31,702 bases of DNA from a virus. The stretch lies in UHGV virus genome UHGV-0114730. One strand, 5' to 3'. This document shows, piece by piece, positions 6,148 through 26,540 of the stretch. Within the stretch, counting starts at the first letter, position 1. Each line of letters opens with the position of its first letter. The notes beneath the pieces are model-generated. The model saw only the letters and a program-made list of their open reading frames with translations, made no database searches and was not told the origin of the DNA. The translations under genes and the position numbers were made by a program.

Positions 6148-8355
6148 CTAAGCGGTAGTATCTTCTATATTATTTTTCTCTTCATACATTTTAATAAAAT
6201 GTGAAACATCTCCCATAAGTTTAAATATTTCTTTAAATTGTTTGATGTAGATGTCAGGCGTTATTTCGCCCATGTCTGTTATATTTATCGAATCTGAGTG
6301 TGATCCTCTATTTATATATCGATAAAAAGCTTTGAAGTTACTGTTGCTCTCATTTTGTGCAAGCTTGTTCAATTCAAGTTGTAATTCGTTAGTTTTATGA
6401 ACAAATGCAAAGTAATATTCTAAGATATTCCTCATAGTATTAGGAATGACTACATTGTGAATTTTTCCATCTCTGGCATCCTTGAGTATTTGCCATAGAG
6501 ATTGATATTCATTTTGTAAACTATCTCTGCTGATGTTAGAAAAAGAGCTATATAGGTTTTTTGTTATTCTAAAAAGCTGATAGGTATTATTGAATTTTCT
6601 CTCTGAAATTGGTGCTAATTTTATTAGCTCATGAAAAAAATATAGATTATGAGTGAGGATTATCACTTTATCAGCAGAAGTGATAATGTCATAGTGAATC
6701 ATCGATGCTATATCATAGATATAGTTCTGTGATAGACTTGAAATGGGGTCATCAATAACGATTAAACTGTCTCGGTTGTCGAATTCATCTGTATTTGTTT
6801 GCCCCTTGCAATACTCAATAAAATAGAGGAATGTAATGAGGGTTTTTTCACCTTCGCTAAGAGATCTATATACGTTTTTACTTAGTGTATTATCTGAGCG
6901 AACTATAACGAAACTATTTTTTATGGTTGGGTGTTTATCAATATAGAAACAGGTAATGCCAAGGTTTTTTAATTTTGAGTTTATTGAGGAGATTGTTGTG
7001 TCGATATTGGATGTTTTATTTCTTAATTGTTTTATTTCATCATCAGTGTGGTTTATTTCGTTGTTGATAGAATCAATACATTCTTCGAGATTCTTGATAG
7101 TGATGTTGTTTTCAGCTTGAACTTTTTCTAAAACTTCCAGTTCTGTGTTGCAGTAGTTTCTCAATGCCCCCCAAAACTGATTTTGTATTTTACTTTGAGT
7201 AAGGTTAAATTGTTTTACCTTTTCATTAAGTGTATTAATTCTAACGTTATATTGTTTTATGTCTTTTAGAAGAGATTCTTCGATATCATTATCTTTATCA
7301 AGAGTTACACTGAGTGATGGATTTTGTATCTTGTTATTAATTAACTCAATGTTACTTTTTAGCATTTTCTCAAGGGAGGAAATGTGAGCGAGACTAGTTT
7401 TTCTTTCTTCAATTGTGATTGCCGTACAGTCGGTTAACTGTGTTTTTAGTAATTGAAGTTGTTCCTGAGTAGTGGATTCATAAATATGTTTTAGTTTTTC
7501 AATTGATGTTATTCTCTGAGCGTAGCTCTTATCAAAAATTTGCTCGAGTGCCTCTTTGAATTTATCATCAATGGTTTCTTTTTGACAAAAAGGGCAAGTG
7601 TCGTCAACTAAATAATCTTCCTTACCTTTTTTAACCCAATCTAGATTCTGAAGCTTTTTGATTGTTTCTGACAAATAGCTATTACTAGAATCAATGACAG
7701 GGGTCTTTAATAATTGTTCTTCATCAAAAGAAATAATATATGGATTATATGGGGATATTGTTTGTATGGTAGTGTTTTTATGATTCAACAATTCTCTGTA
7801 GTCAGTTAATAATTGATTTAAATCTATATCAGATAATCTAATAGAAGACTTCACCTTTGTGAAAAGGTTTCTTTTATTCTTGAGATACCCTGTCATTAAT
7901 GAGTTGATATCAGAGTTTCTTATGTGTTCGGTATTTAACCAGATTGATTCAGTGCAACTTGTTTCTGCTTCATTATTGCGGTCTTTAAATTTTCTACAAT
8001 TTGCTTTTGTTGCCTCTAGTTTTATTTTTAATTCTTTAACTATTTCTCTTTTCTTACTTATCTCTTTTTCGATTTCGGTGTTTTCTTTGCTTAATGTAAA
8101 AATGCCTTTTTGAACATCTTTATCAAAGAAGTTGTCTTCAATGAACTTTGTATTATAAACCAATGGACGATAGTTATTAATGTTTGTGCAGCGGCAGTCC
8201 CTATAGTCATCGTCTGCTGGATTATAGAAAAAATTTGATATGGTAGATTTCCCAGCTCCGTTTTGCCCGTAAAGGATATTTATTCTTTTTTCGAGGGATA
8301 TTTTCGTATATTTATTTTTGTCGTAGCTTGTTACATTTTTTAGACTAAGTTCCAT
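6148..8355 (-). CDS. cargo 1: ABC-type ATPase with zinc-hook-like coiled-coil insert and C-terminal RloC/PrrC-like putative anticodon-nuclease domain
   Basis: 735 aa; Walker A GQNGAGKST (aa 30-38, nt 8242-8268); CPFC (aa 254-257, nt 7585-7596) in long K/E/N-rich region; LSEGEK (aa 499-504); Walker B LIVIDDPISSLS (aa 531-542); R642-x3-E646 and H686; strongly AT-rich; sits where P2 has tin/old. Confidence 0.55.
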   Translation of the reverse strand: MELSLKNVTSYDKNKYTKISLEKRINILYGQNGAGKSTISNFFYNPADDDYRDCRCTNINNYRPLVYNTKFIEDNFFDKDVQKGIFTLSKENTEIEKEISKKREIVKELKIKLEATKANCRKFKDRNNEAETSCTESIWLNTEHIRNSDINSLMTGYLKNKRNLFTKVKSSIRLSDIDLNQLLTDYRELLNHKNTTIQTISPYNPYIISFDEEQLLKTPVIDSSNSYLSETIKKLQNLDWVKKGKEDYLVDDTCPFCQKETIDDKFKEALEQIFDKSYAQRITSIEKLKHIYESTTQEQLQLLKTQLTDCTAITIEERKTSLAHISSLEKMLKSNIELINNKIQNPSLSVTLDKDNDIEESLLKDIKQYNVRINTLNEKVKQFNLTQSKIQNQFWGALRNYCNTELEVLEKVQAENNITIKNLEECIDSINNEINHTDDEIKQLRNKTSNIDTTISSINSKLKNLGITCFYIDKHPTIKNSFVIVRSDNTLSKNVYRSLSEGEKTLITFLYFIEYCKGQTNTDEFDNRDSLIVIDDPISSLSQNYIYDIASMIHYDIITSADKVIILTHNLYFFHELIKLAPISERKFNNTYQLFRITKNLYSSFSNISRDSLQNEYQSLWQILKDARDGKIHNVVIPNTMRNILEYYFAFVHKTNELQLELNKLAQNESNSNFKAFYRYINRGSHSDSINITDMGEITPDIYIKQFKEIFKLMGDVSHFIKMYEEKNNIEDTTA

Positions 8356-12674: not shown

Positions 12675-13748
12675 ATGCGCCAGGAAACCCGCTTTAAATT
12701 TAATGCTTACCTGTCCCGTGTTGCCGAACTGAACGGCATCGACGCCGGTGATGTGTCGAAAAAATTCACCGTTGAACCGTCGGTCACCCAGACCCTGATG
12801 AACACCATGCAGGAGTCCTCTGACTTTCTGACCCGCATCAACATTGTGCCGGTCAGCGAAATGAAAGGGGAAAAAATTGGTATTGGTGTCACCGGCTCCA
12901 TCGCCAGCACCACCGACACCGCCGGTGGCACCGAGCGTCAGCCGAAGGACTTCTCGAAGCTGGCGTCAAACAAGTACGAATGCGACCAGATTAACTTCGA
13001 TTTTTATATCCGCTACAAAACGCTTGACCTGTGGGCGCGTTATCAGGATTTCCAGCTCCGTATCCGTAACGCCATTATCAAACGCCAGTCCCTTGATTTC
13101 ATCATGGCCGGTTTTAACGGCGTGAAGCGTGCAGAAACCTCTGACCGCAGCAGCAATCCGATGCTGCAGGATGTGGCGGTCGGCTGGCTGCAGAAATACC
13201 GCAATGAAGCACCGGCGCGCGTGATGAGCAAGGTCACTGACGAGGAAGGTCACACGACCTCTGAGGTCATCCGCGTGGGTAAGGGCGGTGATTATGCCAG
13301 CCTTGACGCACTGGTGATGGATGCGACCAACAACCTGATTGAACCGTGGTATCAGGAAGACCCTGACCTTGTGGTAATTGTGGGTCGTCAGCTACTGGCG
13401 GACAAGTATTTCCCCATCGTCAACAAAGAGCAGGACAACAGCGAAATGCTGGCCGCTGACGTCATCATCAGCCAGAAACGCATCGGTAACCTGCCGGCGG
13501 TACGCGTCCCGTACTTCCCGGCGGATGCGATGCTCATCACGAAGCTGGAAAACCTGTCCATCTACTACATGGATGACAGCCATCGCCGCGTGATTGAGGA
13601 AAACCCGAAACTCGACCGCGTGGAGAACTACGAGTCAATGAACATTGATTACGTGGTGGAAGACTACGCCGCCGGTTGCCTGGTGGAAAAAATTAAGGTC
13701 GGTGATTTCTCCACACCGGCTAAAGCGACCGCAGAGCCGGGAGCGTAA
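12675..13748 (+). CDS. N: major capsid protein
   Basis: 357 aa, same size and order as P2 N. Confidence 0.92.
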   Translation: MRQETRFKFNAYLSRVAELNGIDAGDVSKKFTVEPSVTQTLMNTMQESSDFLTRINIVPVSEMKGEKIGIGVTGSIASTTDTAGGTERQPKDFSKLASNKYECDQINFDFYIRYKTLDLWARYQDFQLRIRNAIIKRQSLDFIMAGFNGVKRAETSDRSSNPMLQDVAVGWLQKYRNEAPARVMSKVTDEEGHTTSEVIRVGKGGDYASLDALVMDATNNLIEPWYQEDPDLVVIVGRQLLADKYFPIVNKEQDNSEMLAADVIISQKRIGNLPAVRVPYFPADAMLITKLENLSIYYMDDSHRRVIEENPKLDRVENYESMNIDYVVEDYAAGCLVEKIKVGDFSTPAKATAEPGA

Positions 13749-19921: not shown

Positions 19922-20444
19922 TTCGCGACTGCTGCCGACCGGCTCATCACCGCTTGAAGTTGCCGCCGCAAAAGCCTGTGCGGAAATTGAAAAAACGCCG
20001 GTCAGTATTCGTGAGCTGTGGAACCCGGACACCTGCCCGGCAAATCTGCTGCCGTGGCTGGCGTGGGCGTTTTCGGTCGACAGGTGGGATGAAAAGTGGC
20101 CGGAAGCGACAAAACGCGCCGTTATCCGCGATGCCTATTTCATCCACTGTCATAAAGGCACTATCGGCGCAATCCGGCGTGTGGTGGAGCCGCTAGGCTA
20201 TCTCATCAACGTGACGGAGTGGTGGGAAAACAGTGACCCGCCCGGCACTTTCCGGCTTGATATTGGTGTACTGGAAAGCGGTATCACAGAGGCAATGTAT
20301 CAGGAAATGGAACGGCTGATTGCCGATGCCAAACCTGCAAGCCGTCATCTTATTGGTCTGAACATTACCCGGGACATTCCCGGCTACCTGTTCGCCGGTG
20401 GTGTGGCTTACGACGGCGATGTAATTACGGTTTACCCCGGATAA
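19914..20444 (+). CDS. I: baseplate / tail protein I
   Basis: 176 aa, overlaps J end. Confidence 0.9.
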   Translation: MSDSRLLPTGSSPLEVAAAKACAEIEKTPVSIRELWNPDTCPANLLPWLAWAFSVDRWDEKWPEATKRAVIRDAYFIHCHKGTIGAIRRVVEPLGYLINVTEWWENSDPPGTFRLDIGVLESGITEAMYQEMERLIADAKPASRHLIGLNITRDIPGYLFAGGVAYDGDVITVYPG

Positions 20445-20454
20445 GTGAGGAAGA

Positions 20455-22584
20455 ATGAGCACAAAATTCAGAACCGTTATCACCACTGCCGGTGCAGCAA
20501 AGCTGGCAGCGGCAACCGCGCCGGGAGGGCGGAAGGTCAACATTACCACGATGGCCGTCGGGGATGGCGGTGGTAAATTGCCTGTCCCGGATGCCGGACA
20601 GACCGGGCTTATCCATGAAGTCTGGCGACATGCGCTGAACAAAATCAGCCAGGACAAACGAAACAGTAATTATATTATCGCAGAGCTGGTTATTCCGCCG
20701 GAGGTGGGCGGTTTCTGGATGCGAGAGCTTGGCCTGTACGATGATGCGGGAACGTTAATTGCCGTGGCGAACATGGCCGAAAGTTATAAACCTGCCCTTG
20801 CCGAAGGCTCAGGGCGTTCGCAGACCTGCCGCATGGTCATCATCGTCAGCAGTGTGGCCTCAGTGGAGCTGACCATTGACACCACAACGGTGATGGCGAC
20901 GCAGGATTACGTTGATGACAAAATTGCAGAGCACGAACAGTCACGACGTCACCCGGACGCCTCGCTGACCGCAAAAGGTTTTACTCAGTTAAGCAGTGCG
21001 ACCAACAGCACGTCTGAAACACTGGCCGCAACGCCGAAAGCGGTAAAGGCTGCTTATGATCTTGCTAACAGGAAATATACTGCGCAGGATGCCACCACGG
21101 CGCGAAAAGGCCTTGTTCAGCTCAGTAGTGCGACTAACAGCACGTCTGAAACGCTCGCCGCAACGCCAAAAGCAGTAAAGACAGCATATGACCTTGCTAA
21201 CGGGAAATACACTGCACAGGACGCCACCACAGCGCGAAAAGGGCTTGCTCAGCTCAGTAGCGCCACCAACAGCGATTCTGAAACGCTTGCGGCAACGCCA
21301 AAGGCGGTAAAGGCAGCATATGACCTCGCTAACGGGAAATATACCGCACAGGATGCCACCACGGCGCGAAAAGGTCTTGTCCAGCTCAGTAGCGCCACCA
21401 ACAGCGATTCTGAAACGCTTGCGGCAACGCCAAAGGCGGTAAAGGTCGCGTATGACCTTGCTAACGGGAAATACACTGCACAGGATGCCTCCACAGCGCG
21501 AAAAGGGCTTGTTCAGCTCAGTAGCGCCACCAACAGTGATTCGGAAACGCTGGCCGCAACACCAAAAGCGGTGAAGTCTGCCTATGACAATGCTGAGAAA
21601 CGTCTTCAGAAAGATCAGAACGGTGCGGATATTCCTGATAAAAGATTATTCCTGCGCAATATTGGTGCAACAAATTCAACAACCATGTCTTTTAGTGGTG
21701 GTACAGGATGGTTCAGGCTGGCAACTGTAACCATGCCACAGGCCAGTTCCGTGGTTTACATAAGTCTGATTGGTGGTGCTGGATATAATGTTAACTCCCC
21801 TATGCAGGCTGGTATATCTGAACTTGTTCTTCGTGCGGGAAATGGAAATCCAAAAGGTCTTACTGGTGCGTTATGGCGACGGACATCGGTTGGATTTACT
21901 AATTTTGCATGGGTGAATACATCCGGTGATACCTATGATGTTTATGTTGAAATAGGTAATTACGCCACAGGTGTTAATATTCAGTGGGATTATACCAGTA
22001 ACGCCAGCGTAACGATTCATACATCACCATCTTATACAGCGAATAAACCAACAGGCCTGACAGATGGAACTGTATATGTAATTTACAGTTCGCACATTAA
22101 ACCGACTGCTGCTGATGTTGGGGCGTTGCCATTATCTGGAGGTCAATTGAATGGTGCACTGGGCATCGGAACATCCAGTGCTCTTGGCGGTAACTCGATT
22201 GTTTTGGGTGATAATGACACAGGCTTTAAACAAAATGGCGACGGTAATCTGGATGTTTATGCTAATAACGTTCATGTTATGCGCTTTGTCTCCGGTAGCA
22301 TTCAAAGTAATAAAACCATAAATATTACGGGGCGTGTTAATCCCACAGATTACGGTAACTTTGACTCCCGCTATGTCCGGGATATCCGGCTTGGTGGTGC
22401 CGCCACATACAAACCTGCGAACAATGGCATGACATGGACACATCAGGTACCGTCAGGGTGTGTATATACCGGCATTATTGTTCAGGATACCGGCTCAAAC
22501 TCTGCCGATAACATTGGTGGCGTATATTACAGACCGGTGCAGAAATACATTAACGGGACATGGTATAACGTGGCGCAGGTATAA
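20455..22584 (+). CDS. H: tail fibre protein H with internal tandem repeats
   Basis: 709 aa (P2 H recalled as about 669); conserved N-terminal region, repeat block, divergent C-terminal receptor-binding region. Confidence 0.9.
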   Translation: MSTKFRTVITTAGAAKLAAATAPGGRKVNITTMAVGDGGGKLPVPDAGQTGLIHEVWRHALNKISQDKRNSNYIIAELVIPPEVGGFWMRELGLYDDAGTLIAVANMAESYKPALAEGSGRSQTCRMVIIVSSVASVELTIDTTTVMATQDYVDDKIAEHEQSRRHPDASLTAKGFTQLSSATNSTSETLAATPKAVKAAYDLANRKYTAQDATTARKGLVQLSSATNSTSETLAATPKAVKTAYDLANGKYTAQDATTARKGLAQLSSATNSDSETLAATPKAVKAAYDLANGKYTAQDATTARKGLVQLSSATNSDSETLAATPKAVKVAYDLANGKYTAQDASTARKGLVQLSSATNSDSETLAATPKAVKSAYDNAEKRLQKDQNGADIPDKRLFLRNIGATNSTTMSFSGGTGWFRLATVTMPQASSVVYISLIGGAGYNVNSPMQAGISELVLRAGNGNPKGLTGALWRRTSVGFTNFAWVNTSGDTYDVYVEIGNYATGVNIQWDYTSNASVTIHTSPSYTANKPTGLTDGTVYVIYSSHIKPTAADVGALPLSGGQLNGALGIGTSSALGGNSIVLGDNDTGFKQNGDGNLDVYANNVHVMRFVSGSIQSNKTINITGRVNPTDYGNFDSRYVRDIRLGGAATYKPANNGMTWTHQVPSGCVYTGIIVQDTGSNSADNIGGVYYRPVQKYINGTWYNVAQV
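20968..21627 (+). repeat. 5 tandem in-frame copies of a 132-bp (44-aa) tail-fibre repeat inside H
   Basis: Unit starts at 20968, 21100, 21232, 21364, 21496; consensus ARKGLVQLSSATNS(T/D)SETLAATPKAVK.AYDLANGKYTAQDATT; last copy partial. Confidence 0.9.
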
Positions 22585-22587
22585 TTT

Positions 22588-23115
22588 ATGCAGCATTTGA
22601 AAAATATTACGGCGGGTAATCCAAAAACGGTTGAACAATATCAATTGACAAAGAACTTTGATGTTGTCTGGTTTTTTTCAGAAGATGGTAAGAACTGGTA
22701 CGAAGAACAAAACTATTTTGCTGATGACACGATAAAAATAGCGTACGGCAAAGATAATATCATCCGCTATGTGGAAAAGGATGTGACAGCTATCAGACCG
22801 GATGGATTAAGTGTTGTTGAAGTGACGGATATTACTGCTAACCGACGGGCGGACATTTCAGGGAACTGGATGTTTAAGGATGGCACAGTGATTAAACGAA
22901 TTTATACGGCAGAGGAATTGCAGCAGCAGGGAGAAAATCGGAAAGCCAGACTTCTAGCAGATGCTGAATCCGTGATTTTGCCGCTGGAGCGCGCTGTCAG
23001 GCTGAATATGGCAACAGATGAGGAGCGCAGTCGACTGGAGGCATGGGAACGCTACAGTGTTCTGGTCAGTCGTGTGGATCCTGCAAATCCTGAATGGCCG
23101 GAAATGCCGCAATAA
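22588..23115 (+). CDS. G: tail fibre assembly chaperone G
   Basis: 175 aa, directly downstream of H. Confidence 0.9.
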
Positions 23116-23551
23116 GTTGTATGGGCTATGGTGAGAGCTTACATATCTATGGCACAGAGTAAAGCCTAATCTGACAGTCCGCTCTGTGCTAGGAGCGGAC
23201 TCTGTTAAGGTGATTAAACGCTTGAGAGCGAATGTAGTTTTGATGCTAGCTGCTAATATGTAGCATCTTACCGGCTGTGTTAACGTTGGCCTGTCCAGCA
23301 AGGGTTACGGGCAGATAGTGAATGAGCACATCTTAAAGTCTAAACTTTGAATCAACGGCTCCTTGAGACAGACCAAGGCGGCAGGTGCCTTTAATGGCAT
23401 AACCGGCGCAGATCTGTGATGATGTTCACAACTAACCTGAGGTTTCAGTTTTCATACTCTGAGAGTACGATTGTTGTAGAATATTTATGTTGTATTATAT
23501 TTGAATTTTTTATGTAATGTTCTGACAATTACTGATTGAAGAGGGAAGGAG

Positions 23552-25006
23552 ATGGATTTTTCAGAACTAAATATACAACGGCTTTTTGGTCAAGAGGCTG
23601 CTGAAAGCGAAGAAATTGATAGGCTTAAAGAATATTATTTTAAAAGTAAGATATACTCCAAGGTTATTGTTGATCTTCCTTTGAGGATATTGGTTGGGCA
23701 TAAAGGGATCGGCAAATCAGCTTTGTTCAAAGTTGGTATGGAAGATGAGAAAAATAACGGAAGGCTGACTTTCATTATAAAACCAGATGATATAGCAGGT
23801 ATTGGCGGTAAAGATGATGACTTTCTATCTCTTATAACTCGTTGGAAACTTGGCATTAATGAAATCATAGCAAACAAGATCATGACCTACTTCGGGCTAT
23901 TCGACGAGGATAAAAGCCTAATTAATAAAGCATTGGGGGCCGGCGTTACATTATTAGATGTTTTAAGTGAAACTATTAATATCAAAGACAAGATTGATTT
24001 ATCTAGAATTAACTCAGAATTAAAGGCTAAGGCAATACGAAATTTTTTAGACACAAATAAAGTCTCAATATATATAGATGACCTTGATAGAGGATGGCAA
24101 GGAAGACTAGAAGATATCCAGAGAATATCCGCACTACTTAATGCTGTTCGAGATATTTCCAGTGAAAATAGAGGGGTTTATTTCAGAGTTAACCTGAGAT
24201 CGGATGTGTATTTTCTTTCAAGAACTTCGGATGAGTCCACTGATAAAACTGAAGGCTCTGTCATTTGGTTCGACTGGTCTAATCATGAAATATTTGCTCT
24301 TTTGATAAAAAGAGTTGCAACCTTCAATGGGCATTATGGCTTAAGTGATAAAGAGCTTCTACAAAAAAAACAATCAGATCTGATGAATTACTTAACAGAT
24401 ATTATTGAAGACAGATTTACAGGGAGTGGCAAATGGTCTAATGCACCCATGTATAAAATTTTAATGTCATTGATTAGAAGAAGGCCTAGAGACCTTGTTA
24501 AGCTTTTGACTCTAGCCGCACGTAAGGCTCATGATGATGAATCATCAATAATCAAGACCAAACATCTGCAGGCAATATTAGATGAATATTCGCAAGGGAG
24601 ATTACAAGATACGATCAATGAATTTATATCTGAATTACCAGATGTAGAGCGTCTTATACTTGGGATGAAACCCTCAAAGCGGCAACTTAAAGCATCCGAA
24701 AATTATAATTACACTACTAACTCTTTACTGGCAAAATTAAAATCAATAGAACAGCAAGGAGCATTTAAAGGACGAAACAATAAAAACATTTCAACAAAAG
24801 AATTAGCAGCCTTTCTATATAAAATAGGTTTTATTACAGCAAGGAAAGTTTTACCTGATGGAACAATAGATAGAAAATACTTTGAACAAAATAGGTATCT
24901 TTCCAGCAAGTTTGCTGACTTCGGCTATGATTGGGAGGTACATCCTGCATACAGATGGGCATTGCAGCCAGATAATATTTATGATCTCATTGATAGTGTA
25001 GATTAA
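23552..25006 (+). CDS. cargo 2: P-loop NTPase of unassigned family (candidate single-gene defence protein)
   Basis: 484 aa; Walker A GHKGIGKS (aa 49-56, nt 23696-23719); Walker B IYIDDLDR (aa 173-180); basic patch RRRPRDLVKLL (aa 309-319); AT-rich; own GGAGATG RBS; sits where P2 has Z/fun. Confidence 0.6.
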   Translation: MDFSELNIQRLFGQEAAESEEIDRLKEYYFKSKIYSKVIVDLPLRILVGHKGIGKSALFKVGMEDEKNNGRLTFIIKPDDIAGIGGKDDDFLSLITRWKLGINEIIANKIMTYFGLFDEDKSLINKALGAGVTLLDVLSETINIKDKIDLSRINSELKAKAIRNFLDTNKVSIYIDDLDRGWQGRLEDIQRISALLNAVRDISSENRGVYFRVNLRSDVYFLSRTSDESTDKTEGSVIWFDWSNHEIFALLIKRVATFNGHYGLSDKELLQKKQSDLMNYLTDIIEDRFTGSGKWSNAPMYKILMSLIRRRPRDLVKLLTLAARKAHDDESSIIKTKHLQAILDEYSQGRLQDTINEFISELPDVERLILGMKPSKRQLKASENYNYTTNSLLAKLKSIEQQGAFKGRNNKNISTKELAAFLYKIGFITARKVLPDGTIDRKYFEQNRYLSSKFADFGYDWEVHPAYRWALQPDNIYDLIDSVD

Positions 25007-25012
25007 TATCGA

Positions 25013-25038
25013 TAAGCGATCTTGCCAAAGATCGCTTA
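25013..25038 (+). terminator. perfect 11-bp-stem hairpin immediately 3' of cargo 2 (possible terminator)
   Basis: TAAGCGATCTT-GCCA-AAGATCGCTTA starting 7 nt after the stop; weak U-tract. Confidence 0.4.
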
Positions 25039-25226
25039 CATCTTGTATGTCTATCAAAAGAACCTAGATCGCTGTAACTTAGTACATATAAAAGTTAATA
25101 AATCAAATCTAGTATTTTGCTATAAAGATAAATGTCCGCTTCTTGCTCAAAGCAGACTGTCAGATTTGATAACTTTTGGGCTATGTAAATTGTCAGTCGG
25201 AAAATGAGTAAGTTCAAATCAGGACA

Positions 25227-25249
25227 GGCGGGCGGATTGCCCGCCTTTT
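25227..25249 (+). terminator. intrinsic terminator upstream of FI
   Basis: GGCGGGC-GGATT-GCCCGCC hairpin followed by TTTT. Confidence 0.6.
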
Positions 25250-25349
25250 CTTTATCTGTTGTTTCATCCACTGACCAGCCAGGTCAAATAGCGTCTCATG
25301 CTCTGCACAACAGAAAATAGTTGCACCCATTAACCACGGAGTTAAACGG

Positions 25350-26540
25350 ATGAGTGACTATCATCACGGCGTGCAGGTGCTGGAGATTAACGACGGCACC
25401 CGCGTCATTTCCACCGTATCCACGGCCATTGTCGGCATGGTCTGCACGGCCAGCGATGCGGATGCGGAAACCTTCCCCCTCAATAAACCTGTGCTGATTA
25501 CCAATGTGCAGAGCGCAATTGCAAAGGCCGGTAAAAAAGGCACGCTGGCGGCATCGTTGCAGGCCATCGCCGACCAGTCAAAACCGGTCACCGTTGTCGT
25601 GCGCGTGGAAGACGGCACCGGCGATGACGAAGAAACGAAACTCGCGCAGACCGTTTCCAATATCATCGGCACCACCGACGAAAACGGTCAGTACACCGGA
25701 CTGAAAGCCCTGCTGGCGGCGGAGTCGGTAACAGGTGTTAAACCGCGTATTCTTGGTGTGCCGGGACTGGACACCAAAGAGGTGGCTGTTGCACTGGCAT
25801 CAGTCTGTCAGAAGCTGCGCGCTTTCGGGTATATCAGCGCATGGGGCTGTAAAACCATTTCCGAGGTGAAAGCCTACCGTCAGAATTTCAGCCAGCGTGA
25901 GCTGATGGTCATCTGGCCGGATTTCCTCGCATGGGATACGGTCAGCAGCACCACCGCCACCGCGTATGCCACCGCCCGTGCGCTGGGTCTGCGCGCTAAA
26001 ATCGACCAGGAGCAGGGCTGGCATAAAACGCTGTCCAATGTCGGGGTGAATGGTGTTACCGGCATCAGCGCATCTGTATTCTGGGATTTGCAGGAGTCCG
26101 GCACCGATGCTGACCTGCTTAACGAGTCAGGCGTCACAACGCTGATTCGCCGTGACGGTTTCCGCTTCTGGGGTAACCGTACCTGCTCTGATGACCCGCT
26201 GTTCCTCTTTGAAAACTACACCCGCACCGCGCAGGTGCTGGCCGACACGATGGCTGAGGCGCACATGTGGGCGGTGGACAAGCCCATCACCGCAACGCTG
26301 ATTCGCGACATCGTTGACGGCATCAATGCCAAATTCCGTGAGCTGAAAACAAACGGCTATATCGTGGATGCGACCTGCTGGTTCAGCGAAGAATCCAACG
26401 ATGCGGAAACCCTCAAGGCCGGAAAACTGTATATCGACTACGACTATACACCGGTGCCTCCTCTCGAAAACCTGACCCTGCGCCAGCGTATTACCGATAA
26501 ATACCTGGCAAATCTGGTCACCTCGGTTAACAGCAATTAA
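25350..26540 (+). CDS. FI: contractile tail sheath protein
   Basis: 396 aa, size and order as P2 FI. Confidence 0.92.
   Translation: MSDYHHGVQVLEINDGTRVISTVSTAIVGMVCTASDADAETFPLNKPVLITNVQSAIAKAGKKGTLAASLQAIADQSKPVTVVVRVEDGTGDDEETKLAQTVSNIIGTTDENGQYTGLKALLAAESVTGVKPRILGVPGLDTKEVAVALASVCQKLRAFGYISAWGCKTISEVKAYRQNFSQRELMVIWPDFLAWDTVSSTTATAYATARALGLRAKIDQEQGWHKTLSNVGVNGVTGISASVFWDLQESGTDADLLNESGVTTLIRRDGFRFWGNRTCSDDPLFLFENYTRTAQVLADTMAEAHMWAVDKPITATLIRDIVDGINAKFRELKTNGYIVDATCWFSEESNDAETLKAGKLYIDYDYTPVPPLENLTLRQRITDKYLANLVTSVNSN

Follow-up and report, generated by a model that had tools for sequence, protein, structure and literature searches.

Gene H of the P2-like prophage UHGV-0114730, which encodes the tail fibre, contains an in-frame array of five tandem 132-nt units, each specifying 44 residues. 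We consider it very probable that these units are copies of the PF03406 (Phage_fiber_2, Pf2) repeat in the proximal shaft of a trimeric gpH, between an N-terminal anchor and a distal module of the Mu S' type, and that their number has been changed by unequal recombination. The window (the whole stretch of DNA analysed, 31,702 nt) comprises an entire P2-like prophage and is 98.6% identical over 30 kb to the prophage beside yegQ in E. coli L65.

The array was located by several independent means. Tandem Repeats Finder (TRF) placed it at 21001..21588 (period 132, 4.5 copies, 87% matches, no indels, score 847), and a second, independent repeat finder recovered register-true copies at 132/132/132-nt spacing. 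Units starting at 20968, 21100, 21232, 21364 and 21496 are in frame with the H ORF (residues 172, 216, 260, 304 and 348), and together they occupy nt 514-1173 of H. PF03406 matches five stretches of the protein (324.9 bits, E 2.9e-99, against a gathering score of 22 bits; the best stretch spans profile positions 1-41 of 42), so that the repeat is far beyond chance. Both repeat finders, the translation and the five PF03406 stretches thus bear out the initial annotation, which had proposed five in-frame 132-bp units with these same starts and had noted that such repeats are known from phage tail fibres. The units are as follows:

20968..21099, + strand: repeat unit 1, residues 172-215; the most divergent full unit, with a TAKGFTQ start; 25-30 of 132 nt differ from units 2-4
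21100..21231, + strand: repeat unit 2, residues 216-259; its 3' part is fused to the 5' part of unit 1 in the four-copy allele L006
21232..21363, + strand: repeat unit 3, residues 260-303; duplicated in the six-copy allele L007
21364..21495, + strand: repeat unit 4, residues 304-347; identical to unit 3 over a 64-nt in-register run
21496..21627, + strand: repeat unit 5, residues 348-391; follows the repeat consensus only to 21588 (31 residues)

The initial description of five near-identical 44-residue modules needs correction for unit 5, in which the consensus is kept over the first 31 residues only and gives way to NAEKRLQKDQNGA from residue 32 onward. In translation the units have 59-86% identity to the first, with 26 invariant columns out of 44. 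At the DNA level units 1-4 differ from each other at 11-30 of 132 nt, and from unit 5 at 39-52 nt. When 42 distinct internal units of relatives are compared, positions 15 and 28 vary far more than any other. Position 15 reads T/T/D/D/D across units 1-5, in agreement with the T/D alternation first reported; the variable residue in AVK.AY, given initially as K/T/A/V/S, is in fact A/T/A/V/S, K being absent. Positions 1, 2, 5 and 6 also vary (mostly in unit 1), and there are single changes at positions 35 and 43.

The gene carrying the array was identified by its domains and its neighbours:

20455..22584, + strand: tail-fibre gene H of a P2-like prophage (709 aa), with PF12571 and five PF03406 stretches, in V-W-J-I-H-G order
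20455..20907, + strand: N-terminal tail-collar/baseplate-attachment domain (residues 1-151, PF12571)
22588..23115, + strand: tail-fibre assembly chaperone, gpG-like (PF02413, Caudo_TAP, E 1.3e-32)

PF12571 (Phage_tail_fib, the N-terminal tail-collar fibre domain) matches H residues 1-151 with E 1.2e-58, and in the L65 prophage the RefSeq gene order is V, W, J, I, tail fibre, tail-fibre assembly, the usual order in P2. Given this order, the PF12571 domain and the Caudo_TAP chaperone downstream, the fibre gene is P2 gene H, as originally assigned. NCBIfam holds no model for H; the protein is 100% identical to RefSeq WP_063122134.1 ('tail fiber protein', E. coli L65).

Unit number varies among relatives. 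The initial annotation had supposed as much, and had named counting units across P2-like H genes as the way to find out: related genes carry from 1 to 6 units, and since close relatives are not uniformly five-copy the supposition of copy-number variation stands. Units were counted with a hidden Markov model of the unit in the best-scoring 120 homologues from a collection of 5.8 billion proteins: four units were found in 83, five in 31 and six in 6. H lengths in this set lie 44 residues apart, at 665, 709 and 753 aa, corresponding to 4, 5 and 6 units; an additional pair, of 657 and 745 aa, ends in a C-terminal part that is a little shorter. Identity to the window H is at least 96.5% over the first 171 residues, and also over the 318 that follow the array, in the 665-, 709/710- and 753-aa classes, and the N-terminal domain is 97.7-100% identical between four-, five- and six-copy alleles: proteins with the same ends hold 4, 5 or 6 units. 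The best 40 hits in complete E. coli genomes include 38 that align without gaps over 2130 nt (five units), three of them at 100% identity; the remaining two (H78 and H79) align over 1998 nt, that is, over four units. Among 76 IMG/VR contigs in which H is complete and the N-domain 99-100% identical, two units were counted in 16, three in 3, four in 49 and five in 8, and P2-like H genes in other enterobacterial species have 1-4 units. Sequenced phages hold two (P2 and Wphi), three (fiAA91-ss) and four (vB_EcoM-12474III). P2-like H N-domains with 79% and 74% identity were also encountered on large contigs labelled Vagococcus sp. WN89Y (L097) and Chryseobacterium sp. 18061 (L102); an enterobacterial P2-like prophage is not plausible in either host, and contamination or mislabelling is therefore likely.

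Comparison with P2 itself requires care. The window gene resembles H of P2 and Wphi in its V W J I H G position, its first unit and the family of the downstream chaperone, and over its first 513 nt it matches P2 H at 97.7% identity. In P2 H (669 aa) and Wphi H, however, there are two units, of which the second breaks off at residue 36 with ..VMDETNKK, and the P2 distal part is an unrelated 418 aa, whereas the window H has five units followed by a Mu S'-like distal part of 318 aa. The suggestion that H is roughly one unit longer than P2 H was therefore wrong: the 40-aa length gap is a coincidence and does not represent one unit.

The counts might owe something to sequencing. According to this explanation the five-copy array, or the variation seen among relatives, is an artefact of short-read assembly, a concern that the initial annotation had raised as possible collapse of the repeat. 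The 64-nt identical run common to units 3 and 4 could favour such errors, and many of the database alleles come from draft assemblies. Against this, the 2130-nt gene is 100% identical in three independent complete genomes and others carry ungapped five-copy genes (the 38 of 40 best complete-genome hits noted above); four-copy alleles occur in complete chromosomes (H78, H79 and L006); sequenced phage isolates hold 2, 3 or 4 units; and the two unit-3 copies of the six-copy allele L007 are 4 nt apart, beyond what an assembler invents. The concern is unfounded, and we regard an artefact as highly improbable.

Slipped recombination had been suggested initially as the source of the variation. In the DNA, units could be matched one to one between three alleles, and signatures of unequal recombination are present. 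In the six-copy allele (L007), units 1, 2, 5 and 6 lie within 0-2 nt of window units 1, 2, 4 and 5, while its units 3 and 4 are each 2 nt from window unit 3 and 4 nt from each other: L007 is the window allele with unit 3 duplicated. The cargo gene downstream (see below) is also common to the L007 prophage. In the four-copy allele (L006, from a complete chromosome), units 2-4 lie within 1-2 nt of window units 3-5, and the first unit equals window unit 1 for its first 83 nt and window unit 2 from nt 93 on. Judged from its sequence, this unit 1/unit 2 chimera is the expected product of unequal crossing-over or slipped pairing. The array also displays gene-conversion-like mosaicism: alleles that are 1-3% away from the window allele in the flanks are 8-15% away in the internal units, and the 76 IMG/VR contigs, labelled by the nearest neighbour of each half-unit, comprise dozens of array compositions (the 3' halves of units 1-4 are alike and the labelling is consequently noisy, so that it shows diversity and not event counts).

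The array nevertheless departs from a typical contingency locus. Copy-number polymorphism in close relatives is present (4, 5 or 6 units with the same flanks), but the near-identical DNA units on which frequent slippage depends are not found in the array. Identical in-register runs between units measure 10-35 nt at their longest (17 nt for units 1-2 and 14 nt for units 2-3), except for the 64 nt shared by units 3 and 4; because these runs are short, gain and loss should be occasional rather than frequent.

A further aspect concerns the age of the units. Pairwise dS (synonymous divergence) ranges from 0.29 (unit 3 vs 4) to 1.3 (unit 1 vs 5), dN (non-synonymous divergence) from 0.03 to 0.17, and dN/dS from 0.04 to 0.15. 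The units are old paralogues and not the outcome of a recent amplification. The low dN/dS ratios mean that every unit is held by purifying selection on the protein; the units are thus no dispensable filler.

Within the PF03406 family, an array of this size is unremarkable. A profile built from the five units and run against 1.84 billion representative proteins (clusters at 50% identity) matched 4,259 clusters, with extremes of 11 and 12 near-identical units; the same search returned a 3,377-aa protein with 23 matched stretches. Five copies are mid-range. The family ('phage tail fibre repeat') was first noted in the lambda side tail fibre Stf and K-12 StfR, and the present units share with it the tandem arrangement of ~40-residue units in tail fibres, with no essential difference. 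Their setting does differ from that in lambda-type Pf2 fibres: here the units stand behind a P2-type PF12571 anchor, whereas the lambdoid N-domain is PF08400. Four further fibres (P0121-P0124), whose N-terminal anchors differ, carry 6-12 Pf2 units in a higher-order repeat of two units followed by a linker, APSSHTHPWNQITGVPTASL, with an HxH motif; P0121 ends in the P2-type ..VMDETNKKAPLNSPALTG junction.

A literature search on Pf2 structure or copy-number polymorphism returned only two general statements, namely that structure and function are little known (a 2012 paper, PMC3368898) and that PF03406 is among the repeat families without a solved structure (a 2021 modelling paper, PMC8078820). 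The collagen-like protein EPclB of EHEC (enterohaemorrhagic E. coli) prophages (PMC3368898) offers a parallel, having Pf2 in a trimeric prophage fibre and length polymorphism in multiples of a structural repeat; there, however, it is the collagen and coiled-coil segments that vary, Pf2 separating two collagen stalks, whereas here the Pf2 array itself varies.

What the array might do in the fibre can be argued from this organization. By its sequence relationships gpH would be a trimeric, baseplate-attached fibre that binds its receptor by the C-terminus. Tandem Phage_fiber_2 modules would form a trimeric shaft between the N-terminal baseplate-attachment domain and the distal receptor-binding module; neighbouring units undergo unequal homologous recombination, by which whole in-frame units are gained or lost. 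Each unit may add a fixed increment to the shaft, in which case copy number would set the length or reach of the fibre, and the conserved array and linker may supply homology for swapping distal modules with other phages. Within the unit, the invariant residues L19, T22, V26, A29 and A33 fall on heptad a/d spacing, with the variable residues 15 and 28 outside, a pattern that suggests a short trimeric coiled-coil segment per unit.

Several considerations weigh against this account. The coiled coil is an argument from pattern: a single-sequence AlphaFold2 monomer of the whole of H was unusable (mean pLDDT 35, pTM 0.22), and sequence and profile searches of the PDB found the unit only in entries for the Mu fibre S/S', in one copy each. 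In the cryo-EM work on Mu gp49, only the N-terminal part was modelled, the C-terminus being taken from a crystal structure (J Virol 2025, PMC11915804). Any effect of copy number on fibre length, adsorption or host range would likewise be a reading of sequence. Finally, collapse during assembly might in principle produce a chimeric unit; the answer is that complete chromosomes contain the four-copy class, that 83 distinct sequences represent it, and that units 1 and 2 share an identical run of at most 17 nt.

Should unit number affect reach, it might be an adaptive length polymorphism, recurrent unequal recombination yielding variants of 2-6 units that are selected for a reach matching the depth of O-antigen or capsule. 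We think this unlikely; if true, unit number would determine host range alongside the receptor-binding tip and independently of it. That the variation is selectively neutral, a by-product of recombination in a shaft made of repeats, with anything from about 2 to 6 units working equally well and nothing being tuned, is a serious possibility, though we rate it at somewhat less than even. Unit number mostly tracks the type of distal module, which resembles inheritance more than adjustment (all 16 alleles with a P2-type distal part have two units, and most others have four); its correlation with the remaining C-terminal length is weak (Spearman -0.33, on related and hence non-independent sequences, with no correction for relatedness); and total H length ranges widely, from 505 to 816 aa. 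The strong purifying selection on every unit speaks against neutrality, as does the behaviour of an experimentally coevolved Enterococcus phage, EfV12-phi1, in which in-frame tandem duplications in the tail-fibre gene evolved repeatedly under host resistance (PMC6365445). Because those duplications were selected, fibre repeat number can be adaptive. The two cases are alike in that a fibre gene contains a varying number of in-frame tandem copies, placed upstream of its binding domain; they differ in that the EfV12-phi1 unit is 1.8 kb, arose within days and is sequence-identical, whereas here the unit is 132 nt, dS reaches 1.3 and purifying selection is evident.

Downstream of the array lie a linker and a distal module that connect this fibre to those of Mu-like phages:

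21589..21681, + strand: junction/linker motif NAEKRLQKDQNGADIPDKRLFLRNIGATNST, between the array and the distal module; common to Mu S (DNANARLAKDRNGADIPNKPLFIQNLG)
21607..22584, + strand: distal (receptor-binding) module, Mu S'-like, with similarity to the vB_YpM_5 fibre segment

Nucleotides 1153-1940 of H (window 21607..22394) are 92.9% identical to the invertase-adjoining variable fibre segment of the Yersinia Mu-like phage vB_YpM_5 (L112, 3001-3788). This homology starts at the end of unit 5, and the linker is also common to the start of the S'-type segment in this Muvirus, where a gix-type (gix-like) site lies just upstream of the matching segment (hin/gin-type invertase). Unit 5 and the linker align to residues 104-175 of Mu S (motif ..NGADIP.K.LF..N.G), and the C-terminal tip matches as well, the C-terminal ~80 residues of H matching both Mu S and a PDB entry of a short tail fibre; Mu S differs in having a single unit, at residues 116-158. 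A search of the window at up to 3 mismatches gave no gix site, and the window contains neither a Mu-type invertase nor an inverted fibre/assembly cassette: G is followed by a + strand P-loop ATPase gene, and the only gene of invertase/recombinase type is the site-specific integrase of the prophage. This is not an invertible segment of the Mu/P1 G/C type; what is shared is confined to the distal coding module. An inverted second chaperone gene with a fibre fragment was seen downstream of H and G in Xuanwuvirus P88_4B11 (L113, 5483-6357), whose H has three Pf2 units and a P2-type junction, and suggests an invertible fibre cassette in the P88-like lineage of Peduoviridae.

Tail-fibre genes have long been known as mosaics built at conserved motifs, as reported by Haggard-Ljungquist et al. 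in 1992 and Sandmeier in 1994. A distal module shared with a Mu-like phage, in a window that has neither a Mu-type invertase, an inverted cassette nor a gix site, fits this picture. Mosaicism of tail fibres is also the subject of Garcia et al. 2008, as cited in PMC7460101.

From these relationships it might be argued that the array and linker are mainly a recombination adaptor for exchanging distal modules among P2-, Mu-, P1- and lambda-type phages, changes in copy number being a side effect. DNA homology to other H types breaks off at different points inside the array or directly behind it (query positions 728, 858, 1002 and 1181); the distal part from nt 1153 is the one that resembles the fibre part of the Muvirus invertible segment; the last unit and linker are common to Mu S; and at least about 15 lengths of distal part are found behind the same N-domain and array. 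We judge the case evenly balanced. Exchange homology needs one unit and not five, and the amino acids are conserved more than the DNA, which indicates that selection acts on the protein; a role as adaptor is, moreover, compatible with a structural one.

The array also gives rise to an open reading frame on the opposite strand:

21249..21494, - strand: antisense shadow ORF, no gene; within units 3-4, internally repeated

That this is a real gene embedded in the repeat is extremely improbable. It starts at a GTG and stays open for 81 codons, yet it is confined to two units, and its frame contains 8 stops across the array, with a longest open stretch of 87 or 131 codons depending on the allele. 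It shares its third codon (wobble) positions with H, an arrangement that typically yields long shadow ORFs; its initial interpretation as a shadow of the repeat was correct. A second, longer shadow, an antisense frame through the array (20968..21627) that is open for 212 codons, is missing from the list of ORFs of at least 60 aa.

A promoter and terminator scan of 20300..25400 found nothing above chance within the array. The sole other tandem array in the window, two copies of a 16-nt unit (TGACGAGCAAGGTCAC) at 13222..13253 in the major capsid gene, has a TRF score of 50, equal to the threshold, and is probably of little significance. Two ATPase genes occupy positions where P2-like phages carry cargo. 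At 6148..8355 (- strand), between replication gene A and the portal gene (the tin/old cargo position of P2), a 735-aa AAA-type ATPase matches the PADLOC candidate defence family PDC-S06 (E 1e-249) and has weak similarity to LmuB and SMC-like proteins. At 23552..25006 (+ strand), between the chaperone gene G and the sheath gene FI (the Z/fun cargo position of P2), a 484-aa P-loop ATPase belongs to the Sll1717 family (NCBIfam NF047389, E 4e-61), with no Pfam or PADLOC match. In relatives the Z/fun position is held by fun(Z) in P2, a SMEK-domain protein in 12474III, a 720-aa AAA ATPase in LR882050 and other ORFs in fiAA91-ss and Wphi.

The array is an ordinary tail-fibre feature: the repeat family, the gene and the mosaicism of fibres are known, and the exact protein is already in RefSeq. 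It carries little weight as a discovery; what it documents is a set of P2-type H alleles with the same ends that differ by whole 44-residue units, with a traceable duplication and a traceable fusion. For annotators there is a caution in this, since 44-aa length differences between H proteins are real alleles. Because the boundaries of the units are natural, tolerated junctions, the array is of use in prophage typing and in the engineering of P2, pyocin-like or chimeric fibres. Should an effect of unit number on host range be demonstrated, phage engineering would gain a simple tunable parameter.

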